Positions 9,001 to 58,676 of a stretch of DNA of 64,000 bases are shown piece after piece (position 1 is the first letter of the stretch; each line of letters begins with the position of its first letter). The translations under genes and the position numbers were made by a program. This DNA comes from Candidatus Omnitrophota bacterium (GTDB taxonomy: Bacteria; Omnitrophota; Gorgyraeia; JABMRG01), in assembly GCA_028716165.1 (NCBI GenBank), contig JAQUQI010000005.1, positions 24,996 through 88,995 on the forward strand. The letters run 5' to 3'. The notes beneath the pieces were generated by a model, which saw only the letters and a list, made by a program, of their open reading frames with translations, did not search any database and was not told where the DNA came from.

Positions 9001-12000
9001 GGTGTAGCAGTTGATGATGCTTTTCTAGAACGCCTGATGGATCCCAAGACAACCCTTAAACAAACCATAGAAGACATCGCGCAAAAATTAGGCAGAACGC
9101 AAAAGGATATAGAAGAATACATAATTTCAAAATGGATAGTATTTCGTGCTGACGGGTATTTAAAGACACTTCTTTTTGCTGAACGCGCGGGAGAAGCGGC
9201 ATACAGGGTTTTAATAAAGCACAAATTTAAAGACGAAAATGGCCGTGATCCAAGTGAAGCGGAAATAAACGATATTTTGAAAAAACATCTTATGTTTATT
9301 CATGTCCATGAAGATATAGATCCGGATATACAGAACTGGGGTGGAAAGAACCCTAGCGAGATTATTAATATATTATGCGATACAAACAGGCCGCAAGGAA
9401 CCTATACGATAAACGGCTGTTCTTATGCTGATACAGGTAGCGAAAAGAGCTTTAATAGAACATTTACGCCCCAGGATTCAAACAAAATAATTCTTTCAAC
9501 GAAAGAATTTAAAGGTCATGATTATCTTAAGGATGAGGCAAAAAGATGGGTTGTTAAAACCGATAAGTGGTCAGTAACAGCTCGTTTTATAGAAAAGTTT
9601 TTGAAAGACATAGTCAAAGAAGACGCTATGATTGTCAATCTGGATAGGGATCATTTTTTCTATCCATCCGAATTTTTCATGCTCCCGTTTTTAGCGCAAA
9701 GATTTACTTCCGAAGATAATCTTGGTTATCTGACCACAAGGCTTGATATGAGGACGGGGTATGTCGCCCCTACCGGCGCCGCGCATCAGGTAGCAGAAGA
9801 TACATGGAATTTAAGGACATTGCTCGCGGAAGCTCTTTTGGGCGCGTCCTCTTATTACGGCCCGGGATTAGTGCGTTGGAGTGTTATGAGGAGCTGGGGC
9901 GCTTATATGTCTAATATAGAGGACACCGCCGCGGCGCACGAAGCTATAATGGATGGCATGCGCGGCGACCATACTACCTGGATTACCTGGGGCAGGCCAA
10001 GAGAAATGGTCGGCGCTTCTATCCTTGATTTTCAGAACAGGTTTGGCGGACTTGTTATTGATGAATTTCTTTCAGTGCATTATCAGAAATTATTAAAAAG
10101 CGATAAGGCGCATTGGACTGAAAAGCTGACAATATTCCAGAATTTTGATTTTTACTTTAACAAACCATTGATACCGCACTTTAATCTACTGATCTTTTTG
10201 TTCTCATTTTTTATTAATTTTACTCCGTTTTCATTTTTTGCCCTGCCGATATTATTTGTAAGCCTTGGGTATCTGTTTTCACAGGCTATAACATCGGGAG
10301 GCATAAGATTATTCCATGCCAAACAGCCGTTTTTAAAGGCCTGGGCGTCTTATTCAAAAATGTTCTGGGGCCTTGTGTTTACTTTCGTTCCTTTGATACC
10401 CATGCACGGCGAGAAGGCATTAAATGCTTTTAAGGGTACCGCAGGAAGATTCAGCAGCGGTATTAAAGATATTTTCTACCCTGCCGTAAAGTTTAGGGAA
10501 TTATACAATCTTTACAAGCCGTCCATTCGCTGGGGAGTCGCATTATTAGGGATATTATGCTTGGCGCCGACACATCCCTGGGCTATTGTGACCCAGATAT
10601 TTTTTCATATATTCCCTATCGCGTTTATTTTTGGGCCTTTTATGAAAAATGCCCCTGCTAACAAGAAGATAGCGGCCTCTGTTTTTGGCGTAAGCGGAGC
10701 ATTGTTTGCTTTAAACGCCATCTTTGCCTTTATGCCTATGCCTTTTGTAGCGGCAGTGGCTTTAGGTATCATTATTGCCGCAGGGCTGACTGGTAAAGAA
10801 AAATATACCAAGGGTATAACGCACGGGTTATTGGCTATAGTATATTATCTGTTAAGAATAGATGATATCTTTTTTGATCGTCCCGGAGCCCGGGGCCCAG
10901 ATGCAAAAGGTGTAAAAACCAAAGTCAAAGACCGCAAGTATAGCCCCTTAATGACATCATTGCTGATATCAGTATCCCTGCCTTTTTATGTCCTGCGGCT
11001 TGATTTATTAGGAGCATTAATAAAAAAACAGGATTCAAAAGCGGAATTAGGGGCTGGTTTGGAATTGGGCCTTGATCTTTCAAGAAAAATATTTAACCCT
11101 TTGAATGAGTCTTCCGGAAAATTTGCCGCTCTCATGAACGATTCACTTAAAGCGCTTATGTCTCTGGCACAATCCGACCAAAACTTAGACGCTTATTTGC
11201 AAAATTTATTAAGCAAAGAAGATAATATTTCTAAAAATATAAGCATAAGGGTATTAAAGAACTTGCCTGTTAACGCGGCAAGGTATCTAAATGATATGGG
11301 TTCTGTTGAAATAGTTTTAAATGAAAGATTTGTGCTTTCTCTTCTTAATGATTATGACTCATACCCTGTTGTAAAATATATACTTGCCGAACGCCTGTTT
11401 CATGAATTAGGCCATGATAATAAGACTGGAACAGCGCAGGAAGAAGTTGACGAAGAGGCCGAGCTTATAGCCAGGGACTTAGAACTTCACTCCATCATAT
11501 CCTCTGATATCCAAAACGAAATCAATAAATATTTTCAAGATAAAAAACCATCTTTTCCTTCAGGTTATTATTTTGTATTTTTAGACAAACTGTCAAAACT
11601 TGGCGATGGCCAAAGATCCGCGAGTATAAGAGATTATATAAGGCAGAACGGCCTGGCTATAGGCAGGCTTAGTGATGATGAAATAAATGCGCTATCGGTT
11701 GAGGAGCTTGTTCAATTGATAGAGAGTGTTCTTGACATGAGCGGGAAAGAAATAGCGAATAAGTTTTTATTGTATTCGGCCGCGCCTGGTACCGGCAAAG
11801 GCGAAGTTATGGACGCTATCTTTACCGAAGGCAAAGGTAAATACGCTCATCTTGTTGATAAGCTGACACTTTATCACACAAGGTCTCCGCGCGTTAAAAA
11901 AGGTATATCCGAAAAAGATGGCATTGCCTATCATTTTAGAGGAGAGGACGAGCTAAGACAGCTTGAAAAAGAGGGCAAGATTATTACCGCTCTTGTAAAT

Positions 12001-15000
12001 AACCAGCTTCAAGGTATGGCATTAGAGACTTTTTACGAAGAAATTACAATAAGGAAATCCGATTTAGCTGATAGCAAAAAGGCTGTTGTGCTTAATGATG
12101 ATATAAAAATAGAGGAAACCGATGAATACATAAAAATCCGCCGAAAAATACGCGGCCTGAATGATATCTTTAAGGGGCCTAAGCTTGCGATACTTGAGGG
12201 CGGCTATGGATGGTTTGAGAGTATTAAAAAAGACCCGCGTTATAAAGAACAACATAAAGATGTTTTAACAATATTTATATCTCCTTTTACTGATGAGGAA
12301 ATAGGTATAAGGGCTCTTAACAATGCCTGGGTTGATTCAAAATTCAAATTGCCGGAAGAAAAGGCGGCTGCTTATAATGAAATTTTTGTTGTAATTAAGG
12401 AATTGCAAAACGAAATAAACCTTGTCAATGATGCCAATTTACAGCAAAGGGTGATAAGAGCCGTAGAGGATAACGCGCCTTCGCTTAAGGATTCCGCGGC
12501 TTGTCACAATGCTCAAGTAATAGATAGCAATGAATTCTTAAGCAGCTTAAAAATTGATATTAAGTCCCCCGGCGCGATAGATAAGGTCAAAGCCCTCGCG
12601 TATGAAGTAAACAGAAGGCTTTCTATGCGGGACGGCGAAATCAAATTCGCTTATTCTATCAAAGACGACCCCGCCGGTTATGACAGGTATCAGAGGGTGC
12701 TGGAAGGCATTATGCAGATAGTTAATAAAAATGAATATGACACCGTTTTGACGAACACATGGGGCTATACTGATAATGCGAGAAATCAAAACATAGAGAA
12801 ACTAACAATGGAATTTTCAAAAAGCTTTTTCTCGCATGTGGTAAAAGGCCTCCGTGATTCAGCCAAGGCCAGTTCAAAGGCTTTTGCAAAACGAGCATAT
12901 CCTGAGGGGTTATTAGATATGGCAAAAAAATATTTCAATTCAGATATAGAGAAAACCCTTAAGCAATTAAAGGATTGGGCAAAAGCTTATAATGACGCTG
13001 TCAAAAACAAAGAGATACTGGATACGGAAGAAATGACAGTGGAAAGACTGCTTAATATAAAAACAGCAGAAGGCCAGACGGATGCTGTAGAATATTTTCA
13101 TATAATTGATTCTGACGGTAATTATATCGGCATCAAGCCAAGGCCTCTTGCGCATCTTTCTAAAGCAAATGAAGATTGGCACAGGAGCGTATTTGTCATC
13201 GTAGTTGATGAACAAGGCAGGATGCTGGTGCAGACTCGTTCTGCCAATAAAGACCATGCCCCTAATGCCAGAGATATTTCTACGGGCGGGCATATGGGCT
13301 TATTGGATGATGGGCGAAATCTCGCTGATACGACAAAAGAAGTTGCCCTAAAAGAACTTGGGGAAGAGTTATTTAACATAGGCAATCTTAAGGATTATAG
13401 TATTTCTCCTGACAGGCTTTCTATGATAAGCGAGGTAGACGGGCTAAGGCTTTCCGTTCAATATACGACCCCTGTTAAAGGGTGGGATAATGAGCGTGTC
13501 ACTGTGTTTCTTTATTGCGCATCAAAAATGGATATAGAAAGAATTGACGCGGCAGCAAAAGCGATAAGTGACGAAAAGGCTTCATTTACCGCTTTTGAGG
13601 GTGAGGTAGCGGCTATGGAATGGGTTGCAATATCAGATGAATGGAATAAATTTAAAAACATGCCAGATTCTGACAGGCGCGTCAATTATGGGGCCGGTTT
13701 TATAAAGTTGTTTACGGATTACGATCGGGATGTATCGGATCCGGATACTGTTTTAGGAAAGATAGCGCGAATGTCTAATGATCTCAAGGCGCTCTATGCC
13801 AAGTTTTCAGAGTACGAAAAGAGGCTTGGCGAAAGATCTATAGGCCAATTTGTTGGGAAACCATTTGATCCTAACAGGCATATTTATCGTCCGAAGGTAG
13901 GCCCTGATGGCGAGATGCTGCCATTTTCCGGCTTCACAGTAGCTAAGAGGATAACGGAAGGGAAGCTGCGTGAGGCATTAATCGCATTTCAAGAAACAAT
14001 GAAAGAAGAGCTTAAAGCCGCGGGCATGGGCGATGTAGTGGCATTTCTTGATCCTGCCTCGCTTCATATGACTATAGCGGATATTGATCCCAGCCGGTCA
14101 TATCCAAAAGGAACAAGTTTTGAACAAGCCGGACAAAGGTTAGGCCAGATAGACAGCGCTTTTAAAGATATAGGCACGCCCGGCGCAGTACAGTCTACGG
14201 TCCGTGGCTTAGGCCTTGGGAATACGATCTCGGCGCTTGTAAGATTTACTCCAGAAGATCTGGACAAGGCCCTTTTGCTTGAAGGCGCTGTTCAGAAATC
14301 CGCGGATGTGTTCAATAGGCAGTTTACCGGGCATATAAGCTTAGGATATATAGCAAAAGAACCTGAAGATTATGACAAGTTTATCGCGATTCTCCAGAAA
14401 TACGCAGATTATAATTTTGGCGAACTGTTAATTGATACAATTGCTTTATTGCATTTTTCCGACATGAATCATTATACGCCTTTAAAGGAGAAGAATTTGG
14501 ATACAGGTGAGATTACAGACCGTTCCGAAGCAAAAGAGTTTTTGGAGTTTTTAAGAAAAGCCCCCGAAACAGCTCAGGATGAGGTTGTAGGTGGAATTTT
14601 CGGCATAATGACGGCAATTTTGGAAAACGACCCCCGGGCTGGAGATGTCAAGAAAGCCCCCGAAACAGCAGAAAGGCCCGCTGACGAGCTCGTAGATGAA
14701 CTGTACCGCAATAAAGAGCCTATGGGTTCTATACGAAATATTGCCGACTTGGAAAAACTGGCATTGGATAATATTAATGATAATATGGTTGTGGAGCCTA
14801 TAAAAAAGGTTCTTATTGATATTCTTAATGATGAGCAGACGGCCGGAGAGGATTATATTTTTGTTCGCGAAATGGCGGCTTATGCGTTGAGAATATTCGC
14901 GGATATCAATATTATACGTTCGCTGATGACCGTTGCTTCGCTTGAAAACGCGATGAACACTGAAACAGCTGGCAATGAGCTGCCGCCAGCCATTGCGGGC

Positions 15001-15519
15001 CTTGATCTTGCCGGCGTTGCCGATTATTCGGTTGAATATCAGCTTGCCTTATCATTACTGGACTATTCGCCTTCCGGACAGCTGTTTGTTAATAGAGACA
15101 AGCAGGCAGTGATAGTTTACTCGGATGCTCTCAAGCAAAGCAGGGCATTGCAGGATATCCTTAGGGCGTCTGTTCAGGACGAGAGAAGGTTCTATTTCGT
15201 TAATAAGACATCCCTAAGTTCCGGTGAATTTTTAGCAGGGGTCGGCCTGGATACTTTAAATTTTGATAATATTATTGAAGCCGAGGATATGTCCGCAGGG
15301 CAAATAGCCGAAACTGTAATGTCCGAATTGGCTAATCAGCACATAACCCAAGCCCGCGTTTTTGCCGCATTGGATCAGGATTTAATGTCGTGGAAAACAG
15401 CTTCTATTGAAACACTCCTCATGCTTCTAAAGGACAAGAGGTTTGAGATAATATCCGATTACAGCCAGCAGCATGCCGAATATATCAGGACGCATGCCCA
15501 GGCGTTAACAGCAGCATAA
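1..15519 (+). CDS. Giant multidomain membrane protein, 5'-partial (>5144 aa). Contains tandem ~68-aa repeats, Rhs/YD-like repeats, three TM clusters, a guanylate-kinase-like domain with degenerate P-loop, a Nudix/IDI-like domain, and a C-terminal module paralogous to the ORF at 16714.
   Basis: One uninterrupted frame from base 1 to the stop at 15517-15519. The ORF track begins at a TTG at 85, but codons 1-84 have no stop, so the true start is upstream. Hydrophobic helices lie at about nt 7040-7140, 7990-8420 and 10150-10960. GK-like motifs are APGTGKG ... LYHTRSPR..DGIAYHF ... ILEGGYGW ... IFISPFTDEEIG. The IDI/Nudix-like stretch is HRSVFVIVVDEQGRMLVQTRS...GGH...KELGEEL. Confidence 0.85.
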   Translation, partial: TYVFNFDAETGRVTTGELKRYADSGRPILIALEYTPGKEGKSPSFKARVFGSQQDMEDAQDLLTSGSQIVLVSKADSFVVHEVQKAGEGYVARLDGNGAPVVWIHAEYNKGNPDVERSGAVSASIQDMRLIADIQSVSKKLRLKGPDGNDITGLAQITDANNLESVLNKDLGEPVQVSTELPDHKYVIMAYNSGTKQVLPFYGKSTFDVYTQFYNSPEHEKEFELLNLLKIGNIIYTDDNSSWLGGFEPQRGGVRRAKITMFNDNKGNEYPVKIGHDAQTRDDLYAYGVLEIDIRDDSFNPTGSWVYYLNKQGLPIDRLPHEEACNLRNVSINFSGKNENAKLLINDIAYGQNAHDKFGAFLPFAADVYDVSGGAPRPVGIHIDDRGRNRIYFEFTSQATQSADGTWSVPALAFCDMYDDQNVYLGQYAFNSIVKWTEGEDGAKAYTYEIGNALSWGVEAQSGPYAGNKFVYILDSTRKKDDGSYIISNEMLGKLGTTERGSHILSGKDLDTLGIDKNSKAVSRILRAAQIYQAGFEAGDPSRVMLFDSSYPGREKEAVAMSQYPGGELEMVIRGPNSKEIARFTFGDSDSYDTNKFGLYRKIVEDFQTDQSEKIKQMALSEGIITIPVKLGNYYIGHRYNNETSLYEHGMFKTLADLAKAGYAIYDEITAAQIFRLDSDTPAKIEFFANDGSSLGRAITDQKLSLSVFDKGGEKIGENVYEFVFDRLTGNVVIGKFLYFIDTKKAEEMLGKMLEALREDPVALEAFNLLTGAGIKDSGKLSQAQLDVLYTLIFKNDLGEFHENAADTEKTLEGLRLASSMLAALRGNQGALEAFNALTNAGFANEGYLADSQLAVLYGMIYDGEGEKHKHAGDPKTTMEGIILAKKALDQLRANPSELAAFNLIAGVNIKLSGPLTAEELTALYTLVYDSDGDFYRDSAGYAYTPIESIKFAGPMLKALRLDLEALKAFNLFTGVNIQPTGKLSQSQINALYGLIYGANGDFQPNATDPIATIEGLKLAVAMLDSLRSNPEALKLFNLFTGINITLQGALNGKQIDALYGLIYTKDADGKTILKDNADDPASAIQDIITFYNNVVSYVIAISANPNAMALANSAFGLGLTPNMTAGNITQAQLKIFSNSDLGILYDEGGVLRDIDTVVMLFKRMGEIYANWDSQAQSALRIFSGVDIAPGLDSLNSDQIKAFNTLLFDRNGNLYLTDAEFDAQTVVANLKRVIYKVGDTYVTENGLAAYSLNSNSPGVKPLLLAQVTKTGKHDRMYIIDPSIPNTDNVYAEILEGDIDLDAGTINLKFVVNVGRDSAGNRISSVTNYDGREVQRGTLAGFIDSSGGYIPSDVYIDDLSDIAAVRMKITTSLFGQQWYEEYDFNGNIVRTIKPYPETGQAEVVKYNVKENGSFPDSRSYLYEYDNNLNDIKTDKPVMDLRESKIIGYTDMNDPIAFVHDSVTDSYWQEIIDPVGRVKAKVIGDYNAAAGIFSPIAIEIPSYDGYIGASAIGSSKMYEYSKANGYNTAAYAGSKVLIETGKIEIITIDGRVCVRSFYFNNKTNVSWQEIKDARGNIIAKLYQYPDSGSSGYRASFVEIMQYEPGIGSIEGIAQSGKLYLFTGREDLRDFSISQYADKPVLTESYLVDHSGKAITTVEALKMDSLVYQYENKVSKLVWQEERDNRGRLIAKYTGVSSRDDQGNLTGFSRKVVEKITPTGILGVMHISATSNSYLYETYQGEKGKHLSEYRPEFAYVSAQIINDSGNAVDSLAGIAQDNTVTYRYVNHKTHLVWEEVRDGFGRIIRRYDGETLGDKSSPLTEPFKRVLVTDQYYEGLIGDFGLSTSSEVYSLDESGKKVGNPIDQSELLSNKFEKLDFEQLSATDSFGALKSIFDEQGRIYYQGSRAYKRSDIRGEGLLEYREIKNNTGSIEERFEGYKDPSGKFVSNLKRYFFYPDSDIWRSFSIAQKTILTIFVDGKEIIFSVANRTSFDEQTGDISYSCKKGKGIINFPQITYTNLEQSLDLLFEDAKGFEYVTYAWQEIKNNRGWLVQTREGFGLDDKNFPMGVPRYITFLKGYSLDIPISLEAHIYKYDDNAGERLDGQVIRTKQTESDYRHGTKVGSLQGLHFTDNIAVYDVNDTRINRKSVNNSGYRMDGRLAWEIHAGKMFRDKVYLTYFNELECADYSARLVGVLSPIAGSKLNITNRLAEIKQEPYKTHYTIMIPSKPGSYIVWDKTPDQAKNVWFAVDRFMDGDEIDTEKVSSKGFTRAVENRNIFTAPSEDSALNLAEQDGKYFSEGEFLYEIKNKYTPVLWRSYHENSIREYIGVQFNKHIKNSWLYNAIVESNKRDTLSPIVITTAVSLAAITFLLPLALFLFTYVLSYVHFKKLGKKQIADTKSSGLPGEGGDIASGRAPSAQAPGHASAKVSPGAPSVPDQEIRVRVADINRHLYLNKAFTDYLISLYYKTDEELFALLDAYYPDTHSEKPAMLSERYKYSMVLNNNTVSPDSKQRAKYDFVDRVFTKPISYLMLAIMIDQAEKWDWMNKGELDKGDRITGGLADNFWPFTDRDMKRLFEYFKADGKDPILELGLYKYLGATTLQQWYMDANIKALKEKADKNTTEKQAKANVKKKKDHKLEKGKLIEEAIKPAKEWLAKRYEYEGLHQTVYPMKVNKIINLVWRVFALGGTAGLIAMAITSFSSFGVIGLVFTGLIWSFVLVETHKMLQYAQFHKNWLQGLRTMFKARADYKGPLSEAELKVKKNFFKAYFGWMGTYAAVIVGFSLLYSVGSIPWFGWLAAIPILVISLRESFRSWWYIFTESAATAISRNQRLDSLKRYEDIGKQELDRIRRNEYLKDVFKDVVIEATLSVESGFHLISKQEEQALIKVLNDPKAKKLPDLKSPHAKQEIIKWFNTILMFDEDEFKRIYDQTKLDELNPSIFKGTGKKRVLPTRDFLDAEDGETKDAKGVITEYTPAGIIKSGFYVFKEEFKESWEIFLRDDIFNGVAVDDAFLERLMDPKTTLKQTIEDIAQKLGRTQKDIEEYIISKWIVFRADGYLKTLLFAERAGEAAYRVLIKHKFKDENGRDPSEAEINDILKKHLMFIHVHEDIDPDIQNWGGKNPSEIINILCDTNRPQGTYTINGCSYADTGSEKSFNRTFTPQDSNKIILSTKEFKGHDYLKDEAKRWVVKTDKWSVTARFIEKFLKDIVKEDAMIVNLDRDHFFYPSEFFMLPFLAQRFTSEDNLGYLTTRLDMRTGYVAPTGAAHQVAEDTWNLRTLLAEALLGASSYYGPGLVRWSVMRSWGAYMSNIEDTAAAHEAIMDGMRGDHTTWITWGRPREMVGASILDFQNRFGGLVIDEFLSVHYQKLLKSDKAHWTEKLTIFQNFDFYFNKPLIPHFNLLIFLFSFFINFTPFSFFALPILFVSLGYLFSQAITSGGIRLFHAKQPFLKAWASYSKMFWGLVFTFVPLIPMHGEKALNAFKGTAGRFSSGIKDIFYPAVKFRELYNLYKPSIRWGVALLGILCLAPTHPWAIVTQIFFHIFPIAFIFGPFMKNAPANKKIAASVFGVSGALFALNAIFAFMPMPFVAAVALGIIIAAGLTGKEKYTKGITHGLLAIVYYLLRIDDIFFDRPGARGPDAKGVKTKVKDRKYSPLMTSLLISVSLPFYVLRLDLLGALIKKQDSKAELGAGLELGLDLSRKIFNPLNESSGKFAALMNDSLKALMSLAQSDQNLDAYLQNLLSKEDNISKNISIRVLKNLPVNAARYLNDMGSVEIVLNERFVLSLLNDYDSYPVVKYILAERLFHELGHDNKTGTAQEEVDEEAELIARDLELHSIISSDIQNEINKYFQDKKPSFPSGYYFVFLDKLSKLGDGQRSASIRDYIRQNGLAIGRLSDDEINALSVEELVQLIESVLDMSGKEIANKFLLYSAAPGTGKGEVMDAIFTEGKGKYAHLVDKLTLYHTRSPRVKKGISEKDGIAYHFRGEDELRQLEKEGKIITALVNNQLQGMALETFYEEITIRKSDLADSKKAVVLNDDIKIEETDEYIKIRRKIRGLNDIFKGPKLAILEGGYGWFESIKKDPRYKEQHKDVLTIFISPFTDEEIGIRALNNAWVDSKFKLPEEKAAAYNEIFVVIKELQNEINLVNDANLQQRVIRAVEDNAPSLKDSAACHNAQVIDSNEFLSSLKIDIKSPGAIDKVKALAYEVNRRLSMRDGEIKFAYSIKDDPAGYDRYQRVLEGIMQIVNKNEYDTVLTNTWGYTDNARNQNIEKLTMEFSKSFFSHVVKGLRDSAKASSKAFAKRAYPEGLLDMAKKYFNSDIEKTLKQLKDWAKAYNDAVKNKEILDTEEMTVERLLNIKTAEGQTDAVEYFHIIDSDGNYIGIKPRPLAHLSKANEDWHRSVFVIVVDEQGRMLVQTRSANKDHAPNARDISTGGHMGLLDDGRNLADTTKEVALKELGEELFNIGNLKDYSISPDRLSMISEVDGLRLSVQYTTPVKGWDNERVTVFLYCASKMDIERIDAAAKAISDEKASFTAFEGEVAAMEWVAISDEWNKFKNMPDSDRRVNYGAGFIKLFTDYDRDVSDPDTVLGKIARMSNDLKALYAKFSEYEKRLGERSIGQFVGKPFDPNRHIYRPKVGPDGEMLPFSGFTVAKRITEGKLREALIAFQETMKEELKAAGMGDVVAFLDPASLHMTIADIDPSRSYPKGTSFEQAGQRLGQIDSAFKDIGTPGAVQSTVRGLGLGNTISALVRFTPEDLDKALLLEGAVQKSADVFNRQFTGHISLGYIAKEPEDYDKFIAILQKYADYNFGELLIDTIALLHFSDMNHYTPLKEKNLDTGEITDRSEAKEFLEFLRKAPETAQDEVVGGIFGIMTAILENDPRAGDVKKAPETAERPADELVDELYRNKEPMGSIRNIADLEKLALDNINDNMVVEPIKKVLIDILNDEQTAGEDYIFVREMAAYALRIFADINIIRSLMTVASLENAMNTETAGNELPPAIAGLDLAGVADYSVEYQLALSLLDYSPSGQLFVNRDKQAVIVYSDALKQSRALQDILRASVQDERRFYFVNKTSLSSGEFLAGVGLDTLNFDNIIEAEDMSAGQIAETVMSELANQHITQARVFAALDQDLMSWKTASIETLLMLLKDKRFEIISDYSQQHAEYIRTHAQALTAA
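2233..3700 (+). repeat. In-frame tandem array inside the giant gene: 5 clear and 2 degenerate copies of a ~201-204 nt (~68 aa) unit, consensus ..ALEAFNLxTGxNI..G.Ls..Q...LY.LIY..DGDF......DP....EGL.LA..ML..LR.NP
   Basis: ALEAFN / ELAAFN / ALKAFN / ALKLFN recur at nt ~2287, 2491, 2692, 2893 and 3094 with a 201-204 nt period. Two further decayed copies sit near 3330 and 3540-3650. Confidence 0.7.
4380..6160 (+). repeat. Dispersed Rhs/YD-like repeats inside the giant gene, motif [SVA]W(Q/E)E..D..G(R/N)(L/I)I..Y, at least 5 copies
   Basis: SYWQEIIDPVGRVKAKV (~4390); SWQEIKDARGNIIAKLYQY (~4691); VWQEERDNRGRLIAKYTG (~5025); VWEEVRDGFGRIIRRYDGE (~5375); AWQEIKNNRGWLVQT (~6110). These resemble the YD-repeat core D..GRL....Y, flanked by Y.YD/Y.YEN motifs. 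Confidence 0.4.
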
Positions 15520-32304: not shown

Positions 32305-34434
32305 ATGACCCGACATTATAGCGGACGCAGAAAATACATAAGGCTGGATTCATGTTTTCCTGTTGAATTCAGCCTTTCTCTTTGCGCGGATAATCCTGCC
32401 CGCCAATACCAGGGCTTTACATGTGATGTGTCCGAAGGAGGGATATGCCTTAAAGCAAAAGGCCTGTCTCCCGAGCAGGAAAAGATTCTATCAGAGAAAG
32501 GGTCTGAATTGGATTTAATTATACACATGCCTCTAAGAGGCAAGCCTGTGCCGGCCAGAGCGGAAATCATGTGGACAAGCAAACCGCGCCAAAGCCCGGA
32601 TAGCGGGCAGGGTATTGATATAGGCCTTCAATATTCTGCCATAGATGACGCTGACAGGGCCAGGGTTATAAATTATGCCCGCAGGCTCAAATGGCTGCCG
32701 CGTATCGCGGCGCTGTTGTTTCTTGCGCTATTTTTTTTCATGTTTATACTCGCTTTCTACCATATTAAATCTATAGGCATAAATAAGTTCCTGGTAAGGC
32801 GCGTAGTTTCTATTTCAATGATAAAATCGCGCATAGAGCGCCAGCTAAATGAGGTCAGGGTAAGGAAGGACATGCTGGAGTCCGGGCTGTCAAAGGGCAC
32901 GGCTGATGAAGACAATCTTAGGTCGCAAATAGCATTTATTGAAAAAAGAGCCGATGAAGAAAAGCTTAGGCTCAAGTCCATGCTGGAGCAGTCGGACCTT
33001 GAGAAAAAAAGAATTGAATCCCAGATTGATAATCTTCAGGCAGGGCAGGAAGGCGCTAACAGCATGGCTTCCATGGTCATAGAGTCAAGGCTTTCCCGGA
33101 TTAATTCCGATACTGAACTTTTGCAGATGGAATTAGAAGAGGTCCTTAAGAAGGCCGCGCTTGAGAAAAAGACGCTTGAAGGAAGGCTTCAATCACTTAA
33201 GCAGGAAAATGAAGCGTTAAAAAAAGGATTGAAGTCAACGTTTGAAGACGAGGAATTACTGGAAGAACAGCTTGCCGGATTAAGGTATGAAAGCGGCGGC
33301 GTTGAAAAGGCCGGCATAGAACGTATGTTTGAATGGGTAAAGTTGAGACAGGTCAGAAAGACCGGCCTTGTATTAAGCTATGAAGGAGACCCCTCGCTTA
33401 AGGACTGGGCGTTTATTTACGACCAGGCGCTTGCGGCGCAGGCCTTTATTTTTATGGACGAACCCGAACGGGCTAAAAACGTCCTTGACTTTTTTAACAA
33501 TAAAGCCGCGCTTAGCGAAGGCCTGTTTTATAATGCCTATGACGCAAAAACAGCCGACCCGAGAGAGTACACCGTTCATTCGGGCCCTAATATATGGGTG
33601 GCTATATCTGCCTGTCAATATACCTACTGGATGGGCAATGCCCAATTTCTTGAGATGGCTGAAAGAATAGCCTTGAAAATGATCGGTATGCAGTCCGCGT
33701 CACCGGATGGAAGCATTAGCGGAGGCCCCGGCGTCAACTGGGTCAGCACAGAACATAATATTGATGCTTATGCCTTATTCAACATGCTCTACAGGTTGAC
33801 CAATAAACAGGAGTATGCCTCTGCCGCGCTGAAAGCGCTTGATTGGCTTAAAACGTCAGGTTATAATAGCCAGGAAGCCAGGTTTATGCGGGGCAAAGGA
33901 GATGCCACTATTGCCACAGATACCTTTTCCTGGGCCATAGCCGCCCTGGGGCCAAAGGCGCTTTTAAATAACGGTATGGATCCCGATGGTATAATGGAAT
34001 TTGCCGAAAAGGAATGCAGGGTACGGGTGAAGTTTTACAGGCCATCCGGCAGTGTTATTGATGTGACGGGCTTTGATTTTTCTAAGGCCGGCAATATGGC
34101 CCGCGGAGGAATCGTTTCAACGGAATGGACCGCGCAGATGATAGTCGCGTTAAAAATAATGGCTGATTATTATAAGATTGCCGGCGATACTGTCAAACAG
34201 AACGTATATGGTTCCAAGGCCGAGTATTATCTGGCGCAACTCGGCCAGATGGTCATATCGTCGCCATCTCCCACGGGCCAGGGCCAGGGCTGCCTTCCAT
34301 ACGCGTCTATTGACAATGTTGACACAGGACATGGCTGGCGTGTCGCCTGCGGCCGGCGGACAGGTTCTGTAGCCGGCACGATTTATTATATATTTGCTTA
34401 TACAGGTTATAACCCGCTCTCCCTTGATATCTGA
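32305..34434 (+). CDS. PilZ-domain / transmembrane / coiled-coil protein with a C-terminal (alpha/alpha)6-like glycoside-hydrolase-like domain
   Basis: N-terminal PilZ signatures RRKYIRLD (RxxxR) and DVSEGGICL (DxSxGG). A TM helix at about aa 135-155. A ~170-aa heptad-rich coiled coil. The C-terminal ~400 aa is a helical toroid-like domain (…YDQALAAQAF…GPNIWVAISACQY…TGSVAGTIYYIFAY). Confidence 0.55.
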   Translation: MTRHYSGRRKYIRLDSCFPVEFSLSLCADNPARQYQGFTCDVSEGGICLKAKGLSPEQEKILSEKGSELDLIIHMPLRGKPVPARAEIMWTSKPRQSPDSGQGIDIGLQYSAIDDADRARVINYARRLKWLPRIAALLFLALFFFMFILAFYHIKSIGINKFLVRRVVSISMIKSRIERQLNEVRVRKDMLESGLSKGTADEDNLRSQIAFIEKRADEEKLRLKSMLEQSDLEKKRIESQIDNLQAGQEGANSMASMVIESRLSRINSDTELLQMELEEVLKKAALEKKTLEGRLQSLKQENEALKKGLKSTFEDEELLEEQLAGLRYESGGVEKAGIERMFEWVKLRQVRKTGLVLSYEGDPSLKDWAFIYDQALAAQAFIFMDEPERAKNVLDFFNNKAALSEGLFYNAYDAKTADPREYTVHSGPNIWVAISACQYTYWMGNAQFLEMAERIALKMIGMQSASPDGSISGGPGVNWVSTEHNIDAYALFNMLYRLTNKQEYASAALKALDWLKTSGYNSQEARFMRGKGDATIATDTFSWAIAALGPKALLNNGMDPDGIMEFAEKECRVRVKFYRPSGSVIDVTGFDFSKAGNMARGGIVSTEWTAQMIVALKIMADYYKIAGDTVKQNVYGSKAEYYLAQLGQMVISSPSPTGQGQGCLPYASIDNVDTGHGWRVACGRRTGSVAGTIYYIFAYTGYNPLSLDI

Positions 34435-43597: not shown

Positions 43598-46500
43598 ATG
43601 AAAAATACAGCAAGGCTCAATTTAGCGGCCGGGTTTAAGGTAAAAAGCGTAAGCATTTTACTTACAGCCGCCCTATGCCTTACCAATATCCAGCCTTCTT
43701 TTGCCGCTTTCAGTTCTATAGCGCAATCGGGTTTTAGCGCTTCCGTTACCATCGGAGAAGTGAAAAATTCTTATCCGGAGAAACCGGATTTTTATGCTTC
43801 GGCATATCCTTACATAAAATACTTTTTGGATAGAGCGCTTGATAACACTGTCCAGACGGATTATGCATTTAACGGGTTTACAAGGAGTTTTCAGCGTTAT
43901 AATGGCGGCCAAACGGCCAACTGCGAGTCATTGATATTTTCCGGGGCGTCAAGTTATGACCAAGCCATATTGGGAAGGATAAGCCTGTTTAACGGCCTTA
44001 CCACGATACTTGATACTTATGTGAGTTTTTATAATAATCTTTCTGACGAGTTAAACCCGGTTTTGAAATGCAGCAGCGGCTATACGGACGACGCCGGTAA
44101 TGAGTTGTTATACGGGCCGTATCGTATAGTACGGATAGCAAATCGGGACACATCCCCGGATTGGTGGAACAGTTGGGACTGGTCTGTTGATACCGGAGCT
44201 GCCGCTGTCCTTATTATGTATGCTGCCGAGGCCTATGACAAGACTCTGACGCAAGACTACAAAAAATTTGCTGTTCTTTTGGGCGATTATATACTCAAAC
44301 TCCAGGACGCTGACGGCGGCCTGCGTTATGGCCCAAGGGGCATGTATCATGATTCAGGCCCGGACTTTTATTGGAATTTAAAATCAACCGAACAGAATGA
44401 GCGCGCCCTTTATGCCCTTGAGGCTTTATATCATATAACCCAGAACAGTTCTTATCAACAAGCGGCGGACAAGATAAAGGCATGGCTTAAGAGTATGTAT
44501 GATTTTAGTACTCACCTGTTCCACTCAGCGTCAAGCCGCGAAAATGGTGTGTGGATAAAATCAGATTTTGGTTATGTGGCCACTGATGTAATGGCGCTGG
44601 CGCCTTTGAGCATGATGTTTGACGATACATTTTTTGGCGCAACCCAGAACCAGAGGGATGCCGAAGTGGACGCGATGTTTACCGCTATAGAAACAAGGAC
44701 GGCATTTCTTAATGCTGATAGTAAACCGGTCTTTTTCAAGTTCTCTGTTTCGCAGACAGGTAGTTATGGCTCGGTTGAGATATCTTCTCAAATGGCACTG
44801 GCGTATTTGAGGGCCGCGCAGATATATCACGAGAGAGGGTCAAGCCAAACAAAGGCGGCCCAATACCTTGATAAATACAACACCTTAGTAAACAGCATAG
44901 AAGGTTTTTTTACTGTTCCTGACGACGATGCCGCTTCAAAAATAGCGCCTTACGCTTCTTATCTGGATAAGACTGTTGCCGGGAATGTCCCCACAGGCAC
45001 GGGTTTTGACACCTATAACTGCGAGGCCGCCCTTGCCTCCGGTTATTTTGTTTTCGCAAAGACAGGTTATATACCGTATCTTTATGATGGCGGTAATGGT
45101 ATTCCTAATGTAGGGGGCGCTGTAATACCCGCAAGCGGCGATAGCGATTATGACGGTATTCCCGATAATTATGACGCTGATCCATCCAATCCTTATGACG
45201 CTTATGAAATGGATGATACCGGGTTTACGGGGCTTGAAAAATATATTCTAACCGCGCGCGGTATAGATATTTTTGACAGCACTATGTATGTAGCGTTTTC
45301 CGCCTCGCCTTTAACGGGCCAGATACCGCTTGACGTCACATTTACCGTTAACGCGATAGGCAGTGATATTGTTAAATATGAATGGGATTTTGACGGGAAC
45401 GGAACATATGACAGATGGCAATACGCTTCCGAAGGCAATACCGTAAAATATAAATATACGGCTGGAGGCGCGCATAATGCAAAAGTCCGTGTGACCAATA
45501 AGAATGGGAAAATAGCTGTTTCCGGTCTGACCGTCAACGCGTTAAAAACACCATCTTCGCCTACGGCTCGGTTGTCCGGCGATCTATTGTCATATCCTGT
45601 GGCAAATGAATTCGTAATAGCCTCAACCCGTGCCCTGAAAGGAACCGGCGCGGCATATTCCGGAAAAGAGATTGTGATGTATCAATGGGATGTCTCCGGA
45701 AACGGAGAGTATGAGCTTTCATCCGCGAAGTCGGCTGATGCCACAAAGAGATTTGACGAGACGATATCGCGTATGTTTACAGGCTCGCTTAAAGTGACTG
45801 ATTCGTCGGGTTTATCAGATACAGCCTATTTGAGCGTGATGTCCAACGCCGCGGGATGGGATAATTCTAATTACAGGCCTGTTGTTTATCTGGATAATAG
45901 CGTTGTATATGGGGTATCGGCTTCAAGCGTTACATTGGGTGGTTACGGCATGCCTGCCGCCGGCAATAGCTACGGATATGCTAAGAAACTTGAATGGGAT
46001 TTTGAATCAGACGGTATATATGATTGGTCGTCATCTGTAGAAAACAGCGGGTGGACAGGTTTTGCAAGCGTTAATCGCAAATACGGCGCCCCGGGCATTT
46101 ATAGGGCCACATTAAAGGCCCACACAGAGGCTAATCTGTCTTCTTATAAAACCGGTATAGTTATTATAGAAGGCGGTGAGCCCGCGGTCCGTGCCGAAGC
46201 CCTGGTATCTGCCGATGGAGGCCCGCTTACGGGTGAGATTACAAGCGCGGTGGTCCCTGTCAAGGCAAGATTCAACCATTTGTCAAGCACGGCGGATGCT
46301 GTTCAATTTGAATGGGATTTTGACGGTGATAAGAGAATTGATTATACAACGACAGACCCCAATGAAACACCCGTGTATAACTATGCGGTACCGGGTTATT
46401 TTGTCGCCACACTAAAGGTGACCGATTCCAGCGGAAATATTGACACAGATTACATCCCTGTGTTTTGTGCTTATCCGGTTTCTTATGGTAGCGCTATAAA

Positions 46501-47518
46501 GGCCCCCAAAGAAGGCCAGGTTATCGCCGGAAATTCCGTAACGCTGTCTGCCGATGTCTTTCCTGATGACGCGGGGATAAACAGCGTTATGTTCCAGTAT
46601 AGCCCTGACGGAGGTGTTTCATGGTTTGATATCGGCTATGGCCAGCCGGTCATGTCTTACGCGGTCGCCTGGGATACTACCGCGCGCGCTAATGGCACCT
46701 ATAATGTAAGGGCTATAGTAAACGGTATTTCTTCATCTGATTTCAAGACCATGACCCTTATCATAGACAACAGTTCCGCGGCGCCCGATGTCTATGAAAA
46801 TAATAATGGCACCTATGTAAAGAGCCAGGTTGTAGACCCGTGGCAGTCAAGCAGTATGGTGCTTTTAGACGGCACGCGTATAGACATACCTTATGGCTCC
46901 GTTCCGGGCAGCAGCGTTACAACGCTTACTTCCAAGCAGGTCATTATACCGGGCGCTAGTAATACTATAGATGTTACTATGACGGGATTAAGCCAGTTCT
47001 TGAAAGATATAACTATTACGATACCTTATCCGGATGCCGATAATGACGGTATTATTGACGGAACAAATATTAATGAAAATGATCTTGTCCTGAAATGGTA
47101 TAACGAGAATACGGGTGAGTGGGAAATACTGTATAATTCGGTAGTATATCCTAATGAGAATCTTATTTCAGCACAGGTGAATCATTTGACTATTTTTGGC
47201 TGGGGTGTTTTGGCCGGCGGCGCGGCGGCTGTTTCTTCCGGAAGCGGTTCATCATCCGGCTCAAGCTCGGTTGCCAGTTATTGCTTTATCGCGACAGCGG
47301 CATACGGCACTCCCGCATCGCAAGACGTATTGACTTTAAGAGCATTCAGGGATAATTATCTTTTAAAGTCGCGGTTAGGCGCGGCATTTGTTGACAATTA
47401 CTACAAGATTAGCCCGCCTTTGGCGAGATTTATATGCGATAAGCCTGTTTTAAGAAAGCTTGTAAGGCTTCTTTTGAAACCTTTTGTCCTGATTGCCCGC
47501 GCGGCAAATGCCTGCTGA
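43598..47518 (+). CDS. Large secreted protein (1306 aa) with PKD-like repeats, thrombospondin-type-3-like Asp-rich repeat, and a C-terminal Gly/Ser linker plus a CFIATAAYG-containing tail
   Basis: Signal peptide ...QPSFA | AFSSIAQSGFSASVTIGEV (family-A N-terminus). PKD-like motifs are YEWDFDGNGTYD, WDVSGNGEYE, LEWDFESDGIYD and FEWDFDGDKRIDY. DSDYDGIPDNYDADPSNPYD is TSP3-like. C-terminus: GSGSSSGSSSVASYCFIATAAYGTP...FRDNYLL...YY.ISPP. Confidence 0.6.
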   Translation: MKNTARLNLAAGFKVKSVSILLTAALCLTNIQPSFAAFSSIAQSGFSASVTIGEVKNSYPEKPDFYASAYPYIKYFLDRALDNTVQTDYAFNGFTRSFQRYNGGQTANCESLIFSGASSYDQAILGRISLFNGLTTILDTYVSFYNNLSDELNPVLKCSSGYTDDAGNELLYGPYRIVRIANRDTSPDWWNSWDWSVDTGAAAVLIMYAAEAYDKTLTQDYKKFAVLLGDYILKLQDADGGLRYGPRGMYHDSGPDFYWNLKSTEQNERALYALEALYHITQNSSYQQAADKIKAWLKSMYDFSTHLFHSASSRENGVWIKSDFGYVATDVMALAPLSMMFDDTFFGATQNQRDAEVDAMFTAIETRTAFLNADSKPVFFKFSVSQTGSYGSVEISSQMALAYLRAAQIYHERGSSQTKAAQYLDKYNTLVNSIEGFFTVPDDDAASKIAPYASYLDKTVAGNVPTGTGFDTYNCEAALASGYFVFAKTGYIPYLYDGGNGIPNVGGAVIPASGDSDYDGIPDNYDADPSNPYDAYEMDDTGFTGLEKYILTARGIDIFDSTMYVAFSASPLTGQIPLDVTFTVNAIGSDIVKYEWDFDGNGTYDRWQYASEGNTVKYKYTAGGAHNAKVRVTNKNGKIAVSGLTVNALKTPSSPTARLSGDLLSYPVANEFVIASTRALKGTGAAYSGKEIVMYQWDVSGNGEYELSSAKSADATKRFDETISRMFTGSLKVTDSSGLSDTAYLSVMSNAAGWDNSNYRPVVYLDNSVVYGVSASSVTLGGYGMPAAGNSYGYAKKLEWDFESDGIYDWSSSVENSGWTGFASVNRKYGAPGIYRATLKAHTEANLSSYKTGIVIIEGGEPAVRAEALVSADGGPLTGEITSAVVPVKARFNHLSSTADAVQFEWDFDGDKRIDYTTTDPNETPVYNYAVPGYFVATLKVTDSSGNIDTDYIPVFCAYPVSYGSAIKAPKEGQVIAGNSVTLSADVFPDDAGINSVMFQYSPDGGVSWFDIGYGQPVMSYAVAWDTTARANGTYNVRAIVNGISSSDFKTMTLIIDNSSAAPDVYENNNGTYVKSQVVDPWQSSSMVLLDGTRIDIPYGSVPGSSVTTLTSKQVIIPGASNTIDVTMTGLSQFLKDITITIPYPDADNDGIIDGTNINENDLVLKWYNENTGEWEILYNSVVYPNENLISAQVNHLTIFGWGVLAGGAAAVSSGSGSSSGSSSVASYCFIATAAYGTPASQDVLTLRAFRDNYLLKSRLGAAFVDNYYKISPPLARFICDKPVLRKLVRLLLKPFVLIARAANAC

Positions 47519-47571
47519 TACCAATCCCGCGCGCGGGATAGGCAAGTCTTGGCAAAAAGAGGCTGATTGAT

Positions 47572-48273
47572 ATGAGAAATATAATTACGGCTGTAATAGC
47601 GGTCTTATTGGTTTTTACTGTATTTTTTACCTCTACTACCCATGCCGAGCGGCCAGACGATGCCGGCCTATTGCCCGAAAAATTATTAAGCGGACTTCAG
47701 CTTAGGGGCACGCTTTTTACCGACAGCCTTAGCCCTTTGGCTATAATAGAATACGCCAATAGCGGACAGGTCATGATACATGAATTGGGTGATTCTGTTG
47801 AAGGGTTTAAGATCGTAAAGATATCAAGGGGAGAGGTCATAATGTCTTCCGCGGGCAGGCAGTTTACGCTTTCTTTCCCTGATGGCGGCGTTTTACAACC
47901 GATGGTTTTTGCCGCTAATGAAGGTAAATGGTATAATATAAAAACCGAAGGCAATACCATCGTTACCGATAGGGCCACTGTCGCGGGGGCGATATTAAGG
48001 ATAAAGGATATTATGAAGGATGTCCAGGTGGGCCCATATTCAGAAAACGGTAAAAAATCAGGTATGGCCGTGGCAAAATTAGATGAAAAAGGCATATTGC
48101 AGGAGATTGGCGTGAAACAGGGTGATATAATAAAATCCGTAAACGGCCTTCCGATAAATAATCCTTATCAGGTGATAAATGCCTACCGCAGGCTGAAAGA
48201 TAAAAGCGAGTTGAGAGTTGAAATTATCAGGAACGCAAGCCCGCTGGTTCTTAATTACAGGATTGAAAAATAA
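47572..48273 (+). CDS. GspC/PilP-like inner-membrane protein with C-terminal PDZ domain (type II secretion / type IV pilus-associated, tentative)
   Basis: N-terminal TM anchor, a central beta-rich segment, and a C-terminal PDZ-like GMAVAKLDEKGILQEIGVKQGDIIKSVNGLPINNPYQV. Confidence 0.45.
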   Translation: MRNIITAVIAVLLVFTVFFTSTTHAERPDDAGLLPEKLLSGLQLRGTLFTDSLSPLAIIEYANSGQVMIHELGDSVEGFKIVKISRGEVIMSSAGRQFTLSFPDGGVLQPMVFAANEGKWYNIKTEGNTIVTDRATVAGAILRIKDIMKDVQVGPYSENGKKSGMAVAKLDEKGILQEIGVKQGDIIKSVNGLPINNPYQVINAYRRLKDKSELRVEIIRNASPLVLNYRIEK

Positions 48274-58307: not shown

Positions 58308-58676
58308 ATGCAGCCTTATGTTAAGGAAAAGAGGTCATATCCTCGGATAGAGGCCAGGCTTCCGTTTCAGTTTAAAGATATACAGAGACCTATAGAAACC
58401 TATACAGGTTCTCTTACAAAAGACGTAAGCACCGGAGGGGTTCGTTTTATCTCAAACGAATTCCTTTCAATTTTTACAAGGCTTATTCTGGAGGTTTCTG
58501 TTCCGACTTTTTCCAAACCTATAAAAGCGATCTCAAAAGTTGCCTGGATACAAAAGGCCCCGCGGAGTTCCTCTTATAATGTGGGCTTGCAGTTCGTGGA
58601 TATGACAGAAGAAGACAAAAAACATCTGTCAAATTTTCTGGCAAAGTCTCCCGCCCCTGCTTCGGTTATACCTTAA
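58308..58676 (+). CDS. Stand-alone PilZ-domain (c-di-GMP-binding) protein
   Basis: RSYPRIEAR (RxxxR) and DVSTGGVRF (DxSxGG). 122 aa. Confidence 0.6.
   Translation: MQPYVKEKRSYPRIEARLPFQFKDIQRPIETYTGSLTKDVSTGGVRFISNEFLSIFTRLILEVSVPTFSKPIKAISKVAWIQKAPRSSSYNVGLQFVDMTEEDKKHLSNFLAKSPAPASVIP

Follow-up and report, generated by a model that had tools for sequence, protein, structure and literature searches.

A CFI-box-CTERM tail on a predicted exported, glycosidase-like protein of Omnitrophota, compared with known C-terminal sorting and targeting systems

Closest described systems

The closest described systems to the element considered here are C-terminal sorting signals, for which eight attributes have been set out by Haft (10.1101/2023.06.07.544157), and the folded C-terminal domains of the type IX secretion system (T9SS) and of the Hint (Hedgehog/intein) family. 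The element itself is the C-terminal tail, beginning with the motif CFIATAAYG, of a protein of 1306 amino acids (aa) encoded on a 64-kb stretch of contig JAQUQI010000005.1 from a Candidatus Omnitrophota bacterium; this whole stretch is referred to as the window, and the tail coordinates are numbered on it. The tail is an ordinary, full member of the catalogued family NF041770 (CFI_box_CTERM), and it is not a classical sorting signal composed of a motif, a transmembrane (TM) helix, and an Arg cluster. Its function may be that of a non-classical module for retention in or targeting to the cell envelope, as opposed to catalytic machinery, with a rough probability of 0.45.

The MYXO-, JDVT-, Synerg-, and CGP-CTERM signals contain a Cys and, as in the CFI family, occur on proteins with a signal peptide and unrelated passengers; half of the CFI family also ends in a TM helix followed by an Arg cluster. 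These signals are short and their motif abuts the TM helix, whereas the CFI family has a folded domain of ~65 residues in between, and the tail of the window features neither a TM helix nor an Arg cluster, with no CPBP protease found nearby. The LPXTG, PEP-CTERM, and GlyGly-CTERM signals also have no such folded domain of ~65 residues between motif and membrane helix, unlike the TM-bearing half of the CFI family. The GlyGly-CTERM/rhombosortase system is comparable in being a C-terminal tag on cell-associated cargo of the type II secretion system (T2SS), and CFI genes of Omnitrophota adjoin T2SS-type genes. However, the tail of the window lacks a GlyGly motif and a TM helix, no rhomboid is encoded in the window, and the neighbour is a GspC-like adaptor and not a protease.

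The C-terminal domain (CTD) of the T9SS is a folded targeting domain of ~70–100 residues that needs no TM helix, and the CFI tail would resemble it in that the targeting element is a folded C-terminal domain and not a short peptide. The T9SS CTD is a β-sandwich limited to Bacteroidota-type T9SS, whereas the CFI domain is predicted to be all-helical, is phylogenetically far broader, and has no match to the hidden Markov model (HMM) of the T9SS CTD. Hint domains share with the CFI tail a Cys as the first residue of the C-terminal domain, often after Gly; the CFI domain differs by its predicted fold, by being one third the size, by having no conserved His, and by the lack of an HMM match.

The tail as a CFI-box-CTERM domain

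The protein is encoded by a single open reading frame (ORF; 43598..47518, + strand), which ends in AAAVSSGSGSSSGSSSVASYCFIATAAYGTPASQDVLTLRAFRDNYLLKSRLGAAFVDNYYKISPPLARFICDKPVLRKLVRLLLKPFVLIARAANAC followed by the stop codon; the opposite strand has no ORF of at least 80 aa across this region. The C-terminus reads HLTIFGWGVLAGGAAAVSSGSGSSSGSSSVASY-CFIATAAYGTPASQDVLTLRAFRDNYLLKSRLGAAFVDNYYKISPPLARFICDKPVLRKLVRLLLKPFVLIARAANAC up to the stop codon and matches the sequence quoted in the original prediction, which had described a Gly/Ser linker and a CFIATAAYG tail on this protein; the ORF list of the window and the DNA agree with this description. The flexible Gly/Ser linker VSSGSGSSSGSSSVASY comprises residues 1212–1228 (47231..47281, +) and leads into the CFI-box-CTERM domain of residues 1229–1297 (47282..47488, +), the first residue of which is Cys1229 (nt 47282). 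The last nine residues, LIARAANAC (47489–47515), and the stop codon (47516–47518) complete the gene (47489..47518, +). From the Cys, where CFIATAAYG starts, the tail extends over 78 residues to the end of the protein. The window has one copy of the domain, its six-frame translation containing the motif a single time.

The last 110 aa match NF041770 in NCBIfam with E = 7.7e-28 and 96.1 bits over profile positions 1–69 of 69, so that the NCBIfam search proposed in the original prediction yields a named family. The whole protein scores 90.7 bits over residues 1229–1297, the curated cut-off of the family being 40 bits. When the last 110 aa are scanned against NCBIfam at E ≤ 1, NF041770 is the sole match; no other CTERM model is found, and the models for PEP-CTERM, PGF-CTERM, GlyGly-CTERM, MYXO-CTERM, LPXTG, and T9SS CTD leave the tail unmatched. 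Pfam contains no family matching the tail at E ≤ 1. The tail and NF041770 share the CFIATAAYG start, the blocks LRxFRD and YYxxSPP(L/I)A, the C-terminal position, and a low-complexity linker in front of the domain. No difference separates the two, and the window copy belongs to the TM-less half of the family. An identical protein is found on a Logan contig, and the tail is kept in 14/14 full-length orthologues of 55–67% identity. NCBI already names proteins from metagenome-assembled genomes (MAGs) "CFI-box-CTERM domain-containing protein". A literature search found no paper on the CFI-box-CTERM domain, its motif, or NF041770, and the myxosortase preprint of Haft does not mention CFI.

Predicted structure of the tail

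The AlphaFold2 (AF2) model of the tail features a disordered linker with a predicted local distance difference test (pLDDT) score <50 at model residues 1–15 and an all-helical domain with a pLDDT of ~90. The helices span model residues 20–25, 31–44, 48–70, and 72–94, and AF2 packs every one of them into one bundle. Foldseek finds no match for this model in the PDB, and the sequence profile of the tail has no match among PDB chains. The maximum Kyte–Doolittle hydropathy in a 19-residue window, which serves as the test for TM-grade segments, is 1.39, meaning that the tail contains no hydrophobic stretch of TM grade. The last helix is strongly amphipathic and basic, with a hydrophobic moment of 0.58–0.73, and the 78-residue tail carries a net charge of +8. 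This amphipathic basic last helix is common to the Omnitrophota orthologues and lies above the family average. The tail had been taken for a short Cys-containing motif in the layout of a sorting tag; it is instead a predicted helical domain of ~70 residues with neither a TM helix nor an Arg cluster.

Size, spread, and anatomy of the family

A scan of GTDB, with one genome per species and the pattern CF[IV]ATAAYG, gave at least 600 matches, and 593 were confirmed among the matches listed. The family loci described in the following are the best 80 of these at least 600 matches and hold 88 CFI instances. A profile built from 51 tails (A1), searched against 1.84 billion entries with representatives clustered at 50% identity, retrieves 31,794 representative clusters at E ≤ 1e-3 and 24,759 at E ≤ 1e-10. 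The earlier suggestion that a CFI-type Cys box recurs in environmental lineages thus holds: the family is NF041770, with at least 600 exact-motif matches and 31,794 clusters. The MAG labels of the best 80 loci are Omnitrophota, Planctomycetia, Dehalococcoidia/Chloroflexota, Hydrogenedentota, Nitrospirota, Parcubacteria, Saccharibacteria, Armatimonadota, Elusimicrobia, Clostridium, Geobacter, and several proteobacterial groups, together with the cultured myxobacterium Nannocystis bainbridge. The best match is locus L001 from an Omnitrophota MAG, with 81% identity in the tail and 87.5% in the body; homologues of the body of the 1306-aa protein are labelled Omnitrophota too. An archaeal occurrence, L007 (DATKVG010000067.1, labelled Candidatus Bathyarchaeia), is not relied on: a bacterial-type Lgt is encoded next door, its CFI protein is 28–37% identical to those of Nitrospirales and Hydrogenedentota loci, and the contig may be mis-binned.

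The domain is C-terminal throughout the family. The distance from motif to stop is 76–117 residues in 88/88 instances, and 137/145 of the best representatives are C-terminal as well, 76–133 residues from the end. Among the 8/145 exceptions, the six internal copies P0139–P0142, P0263, and P0283 are tandem genes that were fused or read through by gene prediction, as can be seen from another CFI domain or a new signal peptide directly behind the TM helix and Arg cluster encoded by the first gene; they are rejected as counterexamples. P0174 and P0260 run past the domain, and their continuation is low-complexity or unrelated and looks like read-through. The 83-aa protein P0013 appears to stand alone because its start is mis-called; its real ORF comprises a lipoprotein-like signal peptide, a Thr/Pro linker, and the CFI domain only. 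A minimal CFI protein of this composition is encoded at L165:~3700–4252, and the NCBI record starts it at the Cys. Tandem paralogues occur in 8/80 loci, and in addition there are two cases of two contigs from one MAG as well as the fused tandem genes.

The conservation of the domain was counted in 304 unique domains, a sample enriched by the search pattern, so that the invariance of the motif is overstated. In this sample, C, F, A, T, A, and A of the motif are present at 100% and I, Y, and G at ≥95%; C1, F2, A4, T5, A6, A7, R23, G33, Y40, P45, and A48 are invariant, and L19, R20, D24, Y41, S44, R62, and P67 are conserved at ≥96%. The 10 residues ahead of the Cys consist of 39% Gly and 18% Ser. 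Position −1 is Gly in 158/299 sequences (53%), and Pro, Tyr, Phe, and Lys are also seen there.

Two types of tail exist. In 45/88 tails, the 69-residue domain is followed by a hydrophobic TM helix and an Arg/Lys cluster, so that in these cases the domain lies immediately outside the cytoplasmic membrane; the other 43 end shortly after the domain. The TM-less type is the one found in the window protein, in its 14 full-length orthologues, and in all copies seen in Omnitrophota. An association of the two types with diderm and monoderm envelopes was considered and rejected, as the types do not sort in this way: Dehalococcoidia and Nitrospirota have both, CPR (candidate phyla radiation) bacteria have TM-less copies, and Hydrogenedentota have TM copies. 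The coexistence of TM-bearing and TM-less paralogues in some loci, for example L025, would agree with a role in oligomerisation or as the base of a stalk, the predicted small helical bundle forming homo- or hetero-oligomers, perhaps through a Cys disulfide, and TM-less members riding on TM-bearing ones; tandem paralogues are indeed common. Against this stands the fact that all Omnitrophota copies seen are TM-less, so that no TM-bearing partner is seen in the loci examined. Many carriers are anaerobes, in which extracytoplasmic disulfides are unlikely, and ~11 invariant residues, several of them polar, are more conservation than a simple coiled coil needs. This role is considered highly unlikely.

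The passengers of the family are exported and diverse. A hydropathy heuristic applied to 62 complete ORFs identifies a signal-peptide-like N-terminus in 50. In BLASTP comparisons of the passengers, with E ≤ 1e-3 counted as similarity, 2818/3003 pairs (94%) have no match. Sixty passengers carry 79 Pfam families, all of extracellular type, which include InlB B-repeat, CBM_X2, subtilase, PKD, cadherin-like, and β-propeller families. The signal-peptide-like N-termini and the unrelated passengers support the earlier statement that the tail occurs on secreted proteins.

Sorting-signal attributes and the search for a processing enzyme

Six of the eight attributes given by Haft are present at family level. 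The tail is C-terminal and begins with an invariant motif, as judged by the pattern-biased 304 domains. A signal peptide (attribute 6) is present in the window protein, where residues 1–36 (43598..43705, +) form a predicted Sec signal peptide with a putative cleavage site, read from the sequence, between MKNTARLNLAAGFKVKSVSILLTAALCLTNIQPSFA and AF, and in 50/62 complete ORFs of the family. Protein pairs that share only the tag (attribute 7) are reflected in the 94% of dissimilar passenger pairs, and homologues without the tag (attribute 8) in more than 50 proteins that share the N-terminal 440-aa module at 44–64% identity and have different ends. Multiple or tandem copies in some genomes are the sixth. 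The two remaining attributes are absent from the tail: there is no hydrophobic TM segment in the middle of the signal (attribute 4; maximum 1.39), TM helices of the family occurring only after the 69-residue domain, and no terminal basic cluster (attribute 5), as the protein ends in LIARAANAC and its basic residues are distributed over the last helix.

These observations bear on the possibility that the tail is a classical cleavable signal, whose CFI motif a sortase-like enzyme (exosortase, archaeosortase, rhombosortase, or myxosortase/CPBP) recognises in order to cleave off the tail and link the passenger to either a lipid or the wall. Besides the six attributes, the TM helix and Arg cluster behind the domain in half of the family would fit such a signal; other orphan tags with an invariant Cys proved to have CPBP-type proteases; and in the Omnitrophota locus L026 an exosortase and EpsI are encoded ~8.5 kb downstream. 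However, the window copy has neither the helix nor the cluster, the folded domain of ~65 residues lies between motif and TM helix where the latter is present, and no other CTERM model matches the tail in NCBIfam at E ≤ 1. No single known sortase family matches a distribution that spans CPR, Chloroflexota, Omnitrophota, Proteobacteria, and Clostridium.

No conserved processing enzyme emerges from the surroundings either. The ORFs of the window include no exosortase, archaeosortase, sortase, rhomboid, or CPBP family, and no sortase-like family recurs beside the 80 loci, so that the proposed search for an exosortase- or archaeosortase-like enzyme has a negative outcome in both places. The top recurrent neighbours are an ABC ATPase (9/80 loci), a sigma-54 regulator, and an SDR protein. 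Within 4 kb, four or more TM-like segments are present in 24/496 neighbours; the ones inspected comprise transporters, MacB/FtsX, a flippase, ComEC, an acyltransferase, Lgt, and Lnt, and no proteases are among them. Cleavage by a sortase-like enzyme is judged unlikely. The sorting or anchoring role put forward in the original prediction stands as a reasonable inference, while the classical layout of a sorting tag does not, given the missing TM helix, Arg cluster, and sortase-like enzyme.

Lgt is encoded just upstream of the CFI gene in the related loci L007 (1374–2207) and L019 (4928–5776), and Lnt two genes downstream of it in L017 (3861–5309). Both enzymes act on the Cys of lipoproteins. Given the invariant Cys of the CFI domain, this adjacency is suggestive; it is weak in that it concerns 2–3 of 80 loci and housekeeping genes, and it may reflect chance synteny.

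The junction Cys could also act without any dedicated enzyme, by an N-to-S acyl shift on the preceding peptide bond in the manner of Hedgehog proteins and inteins, which would set the passenger free or hand it over to a nucleophile. The processing site of Hedgehog lies between G and CF, and the arrangement is similar at the CFI junction, where a flexible linker gives way to the invariant Cys that opens the domain and Gly occupies −1 in 53% of the sequences. Autonomy would explain both the missing conserved partner enzyme and the very broad phyletic range. The absence of any Hint-family Pfam match at E ≤ 1, the all-helical predicted fold in place of the Hint β-fold, the lack of a conserved His, and the occurrence of Pro, Tyr, Phe, and Lys at −1 all argue against it. 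We know of no precedent for acyl-shift chemistry in a helical bundle of 70 residues, and self-processing appears very improbable.

The GspC-like neighbour in Omnitrophota

The gene downstream of the CFI gene (47572..48273, +), 53 nt past its end, encodes a protein of 233 aa that combines a TM helix at the N-terminus with a T2SS-C homology region and a PDZ domain. It scores 103 bits with NF041515 GspC_delta (cut-off 150) and 58.9 bits with TIGR01713 (cut-off 101.6) in NCBIfam; in Pfam, PDZ_2 reaches 27.1 bits (threshold of at least 27) and T2SSC 22.9 bits (below 27). The architecture fits GspC, and because the GspC scores are sub-threshold the protein is labelled "GspC-like". A GspC-like gene lies 0–55 nt downstream of the CFI gene in the window, L001, L002, L017, L026, L082–84, and L086–88. 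L001, L002, L082–84, and L086–88 are orthologues of the window arrangement, while L017 and L026 have different passengers and GspC-like adaptors that are 26–29% identical to that of the window; the order of CFI gene and GspC-like gene is thus found in three diverged lineages of Omnitrophota. In L026, the pair is followed by genes for a PilM-like protein, a GspM-like protein, a secretin, a second GspC-like protein, GspE, GspF, an exosortase (XrtW/XrtA-like), and EpsI. The CFI-tailed gene of this stretch (L026:806–12675, Omnitrophota MAG) is lipoprotein-like. The paralogues P0090 and P0114, which have the same N-terminal module and no CFI tail, have no GspC-like neighbour.

This arrangement raises the possibility that, in Omnitrophota, the CFI domain is a cargo tag of type II secretion that is read by the GspC-like PDZ adaptor, the enzyme reaching the surface via the secretin; this overlaps with the envelope module introduced above. 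The short spacing of 0–55 nt, the divergence of the adaptors in combination with different passengers, the continuation of L026 into a full T2SS/type IV pilus-like cluster, and the tail-less paralogues speak for it, as do GlyGly-CTERM and MYXO-CTERM proteins, which are reported as T2SS cargo. It is weakened by the number of roughly three independent lineages, by the lack of a recognisable secretin in the 64-kb window, and by the scores of the neighbour under the GspC cut-offs. A canonical PDZ ligand at the extreme C-terminus was considered and rejected, as the last residues of the orthologues are not conserved. Furthermore, the domain is also present in CPR, Dehalococcoidia, and Clostridium, which have no outer membrane, and T2SS tagging therefore cannot be the general function of the family. 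Coupling to GspC as a general rule is rejected too: remote GspC relatives lie in ordinary gspN–gspC operons without CFI genes. A role as T2SS cargo tag is, on balance, unlikely to be the main function in Omnitrophota.

Passenger and gene cluster

The N-terminal module of the passenger (residues 62–505; 43781..45112, +) has no Pfam or NCBIfam match. AF2 models it at a pLDDT of 93.6, and it is confidently modelled as an (α/α)6 barrel resembling glycoside hydrolases. More than 50 other Omnitrophota proteins have an N-terminal part that shares 44–64% identity with the module. Relatives of ~950 aa (P0082–P0137) have no CFI tail and share the end block ELxWQPNxYSxSPYKPYWKIxANGYIWYVTQEGKVIPE. The large proteins P0129, P0134, and P0135 combine the same N-terminal module with FG-GAP/VCBS and subtilase parts and share the tail YLPRGDEExAARMSLESTLTQDxxGTNYxQTGTLAxPPKxxSLxPKL, which may be a different C-terminal tag.

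The module is followed by an Asp-rich stretch, DSDYDGIPDNYDADPSNPYD (residues 515–534; 45140..45199, +), and by the Pfam domains PKD (567–639), K319L-like PKD (678–748), PKD_4 (896–950), and Big_7 (966–1039), which together span 45296..46714 (+). The earlier label "PKD/TSP3" thus holds for its PKD part, with Pfam matches to PKD, PKD_4, K319L-like PKD, and Big_7, and not for TSP3, since no TSP_3 HMM matches at E ≤ 1; the Asp-rich stretch is the only TSP3-like feature of the protein.

The gene is part of a cluster (34543–56199) that is conserved in an orthologous locus of 58% identity (L082–L084). The conserved order is a GH149-like gene, GH94, genes for three unannotated secreted-looking proteins (267 aa, 435/808 aa, and 257/265 aa), the CFI protein, the GspC-like protein, a TPR protein of 1343/1389 aa, two proteins without assigned function (522 aa and 435/664 aa), a polysaccharide deacetylase, and ComEA/ComEC; for most of them no family could be assigned. 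On the upstream side, the window encodes an ABC sugar importer and GH2-like proteins. The locus is of the type of a glucan-utilisation gene cluster. Together, the glycosidase-like module and the glycan-type neighbourhood suggest an exported enzyme of glycan processing as the carrier of the tail. The host is a diderm, because LptE, a BamD/YfiO-like protein, and MurJ are encoded in the window.

The 53-nt spacer between the CFI gene and the GspC-like gene contains a perfect GC-rich palindrome of 16 nt, ATCCCGCGCGCGGGAT (47524..47539), which starts 6 nt past the CFI stop codon and lies ahead of the ribosome-binding site of the GspC-like gene. No T-run accompanies it, and it is not called as a terminator in the scan. 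PilZ-domain proteins of 709 aa (32305–34434) and 122 aa (58308–58676) flank the polysaccharide-related region, which hints at control by cyclic di-GMP. A giant ORF of 5144 aa (85–15519, +), whose left end is near the window edge, has no Pfam domain at E ≤ 1e-3 except for one sub-threshold DUF1868 match.

Proposed function of the tail

The envelope module would work as follows. The passenger, consisting of the glycosidase-like barrel, the PKD/Ig spacers, the disordered linker, and the helical module of ~70 residues, would be exported by Sec, and the tail would hold the C-terminus of the enzyme at the cell envelope or direct it there. With neither a TM helix nor an Arg cluster, association with the envelope would have to be mediated by the folded domain, by the cationic amphipathic last helix, or by a partner. 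The invariant junction Cys is a likely processing site and would be the best candidate for lipidation, cleavage, or cross-linking. The GspC-like PDZ protein encoded downstream would be the best candidate partner in Omnitrophota and may couple the cargo to type II secretion. We infer the role in localisation, the chemistry of the Cys, and the link to GspC alike from the comparisons given above.

Several observations weigh against this proposal. The window copy lacks both a TM helix and a basic cluster. A helix packed into a bundle is expected to be amphipathic anyway, so that the amphipathicity of the last helix alone proves nothing. Minimal proteins consisting of signal peptide, linker, and CFI domain only suggest that the domain acts in its own right. 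No processing enzyme is conserved within 4 kb of the CFI genes in 77 loci, and no non-CFI family is present in more than nine loci when the 998 ORFs of the 80 loci are clustered. In the reverse direction, an upstream CFI gene is found at 4/64 evaluable metagenome loci with a GspC-like gene, all four being close orthologues; at the remaining loci, the gene is preceded by a GspN-like gene within an ordinary T2SS operon.

Significance

The finding itself is not new, since NF041770 is already catalogued and the tail is an unremarkable member of it. The new leads are modest; one is the optional extension by a TM helix and an Arg cluster that follows a folded domain, the other the pair of CFI-tailed and GspC-like proteins in Omnitrophota. 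A new envelope-targeting device that works without a sortase, either as a helical domain with an autonomous or Lgt-type step at the Cys or as an Omnitrophota cargo tag for a GspC-like PDZ adaptor, is distinctly unlikely. For the window alone, the meaning is small: it adds one more member, which the NCBI pipeline would name automatically, to a very large family.

The family comprises ~31,800 clusters in many, mostly uncultured, phyla and is found on subtilases, carbohydrate-binding proteins, adhesin-like repeat proteins, and this glycosidase-like enzyme. If its role in anchoring, routing, or processing were known, surface-displayed enzymes could be predicted better in Omnitrophota, Dehalococcoidia, Nitrospirota, and other groups. 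The pairing with the GspC-like protein provides a concrete and testable partner in Omnitrophota.

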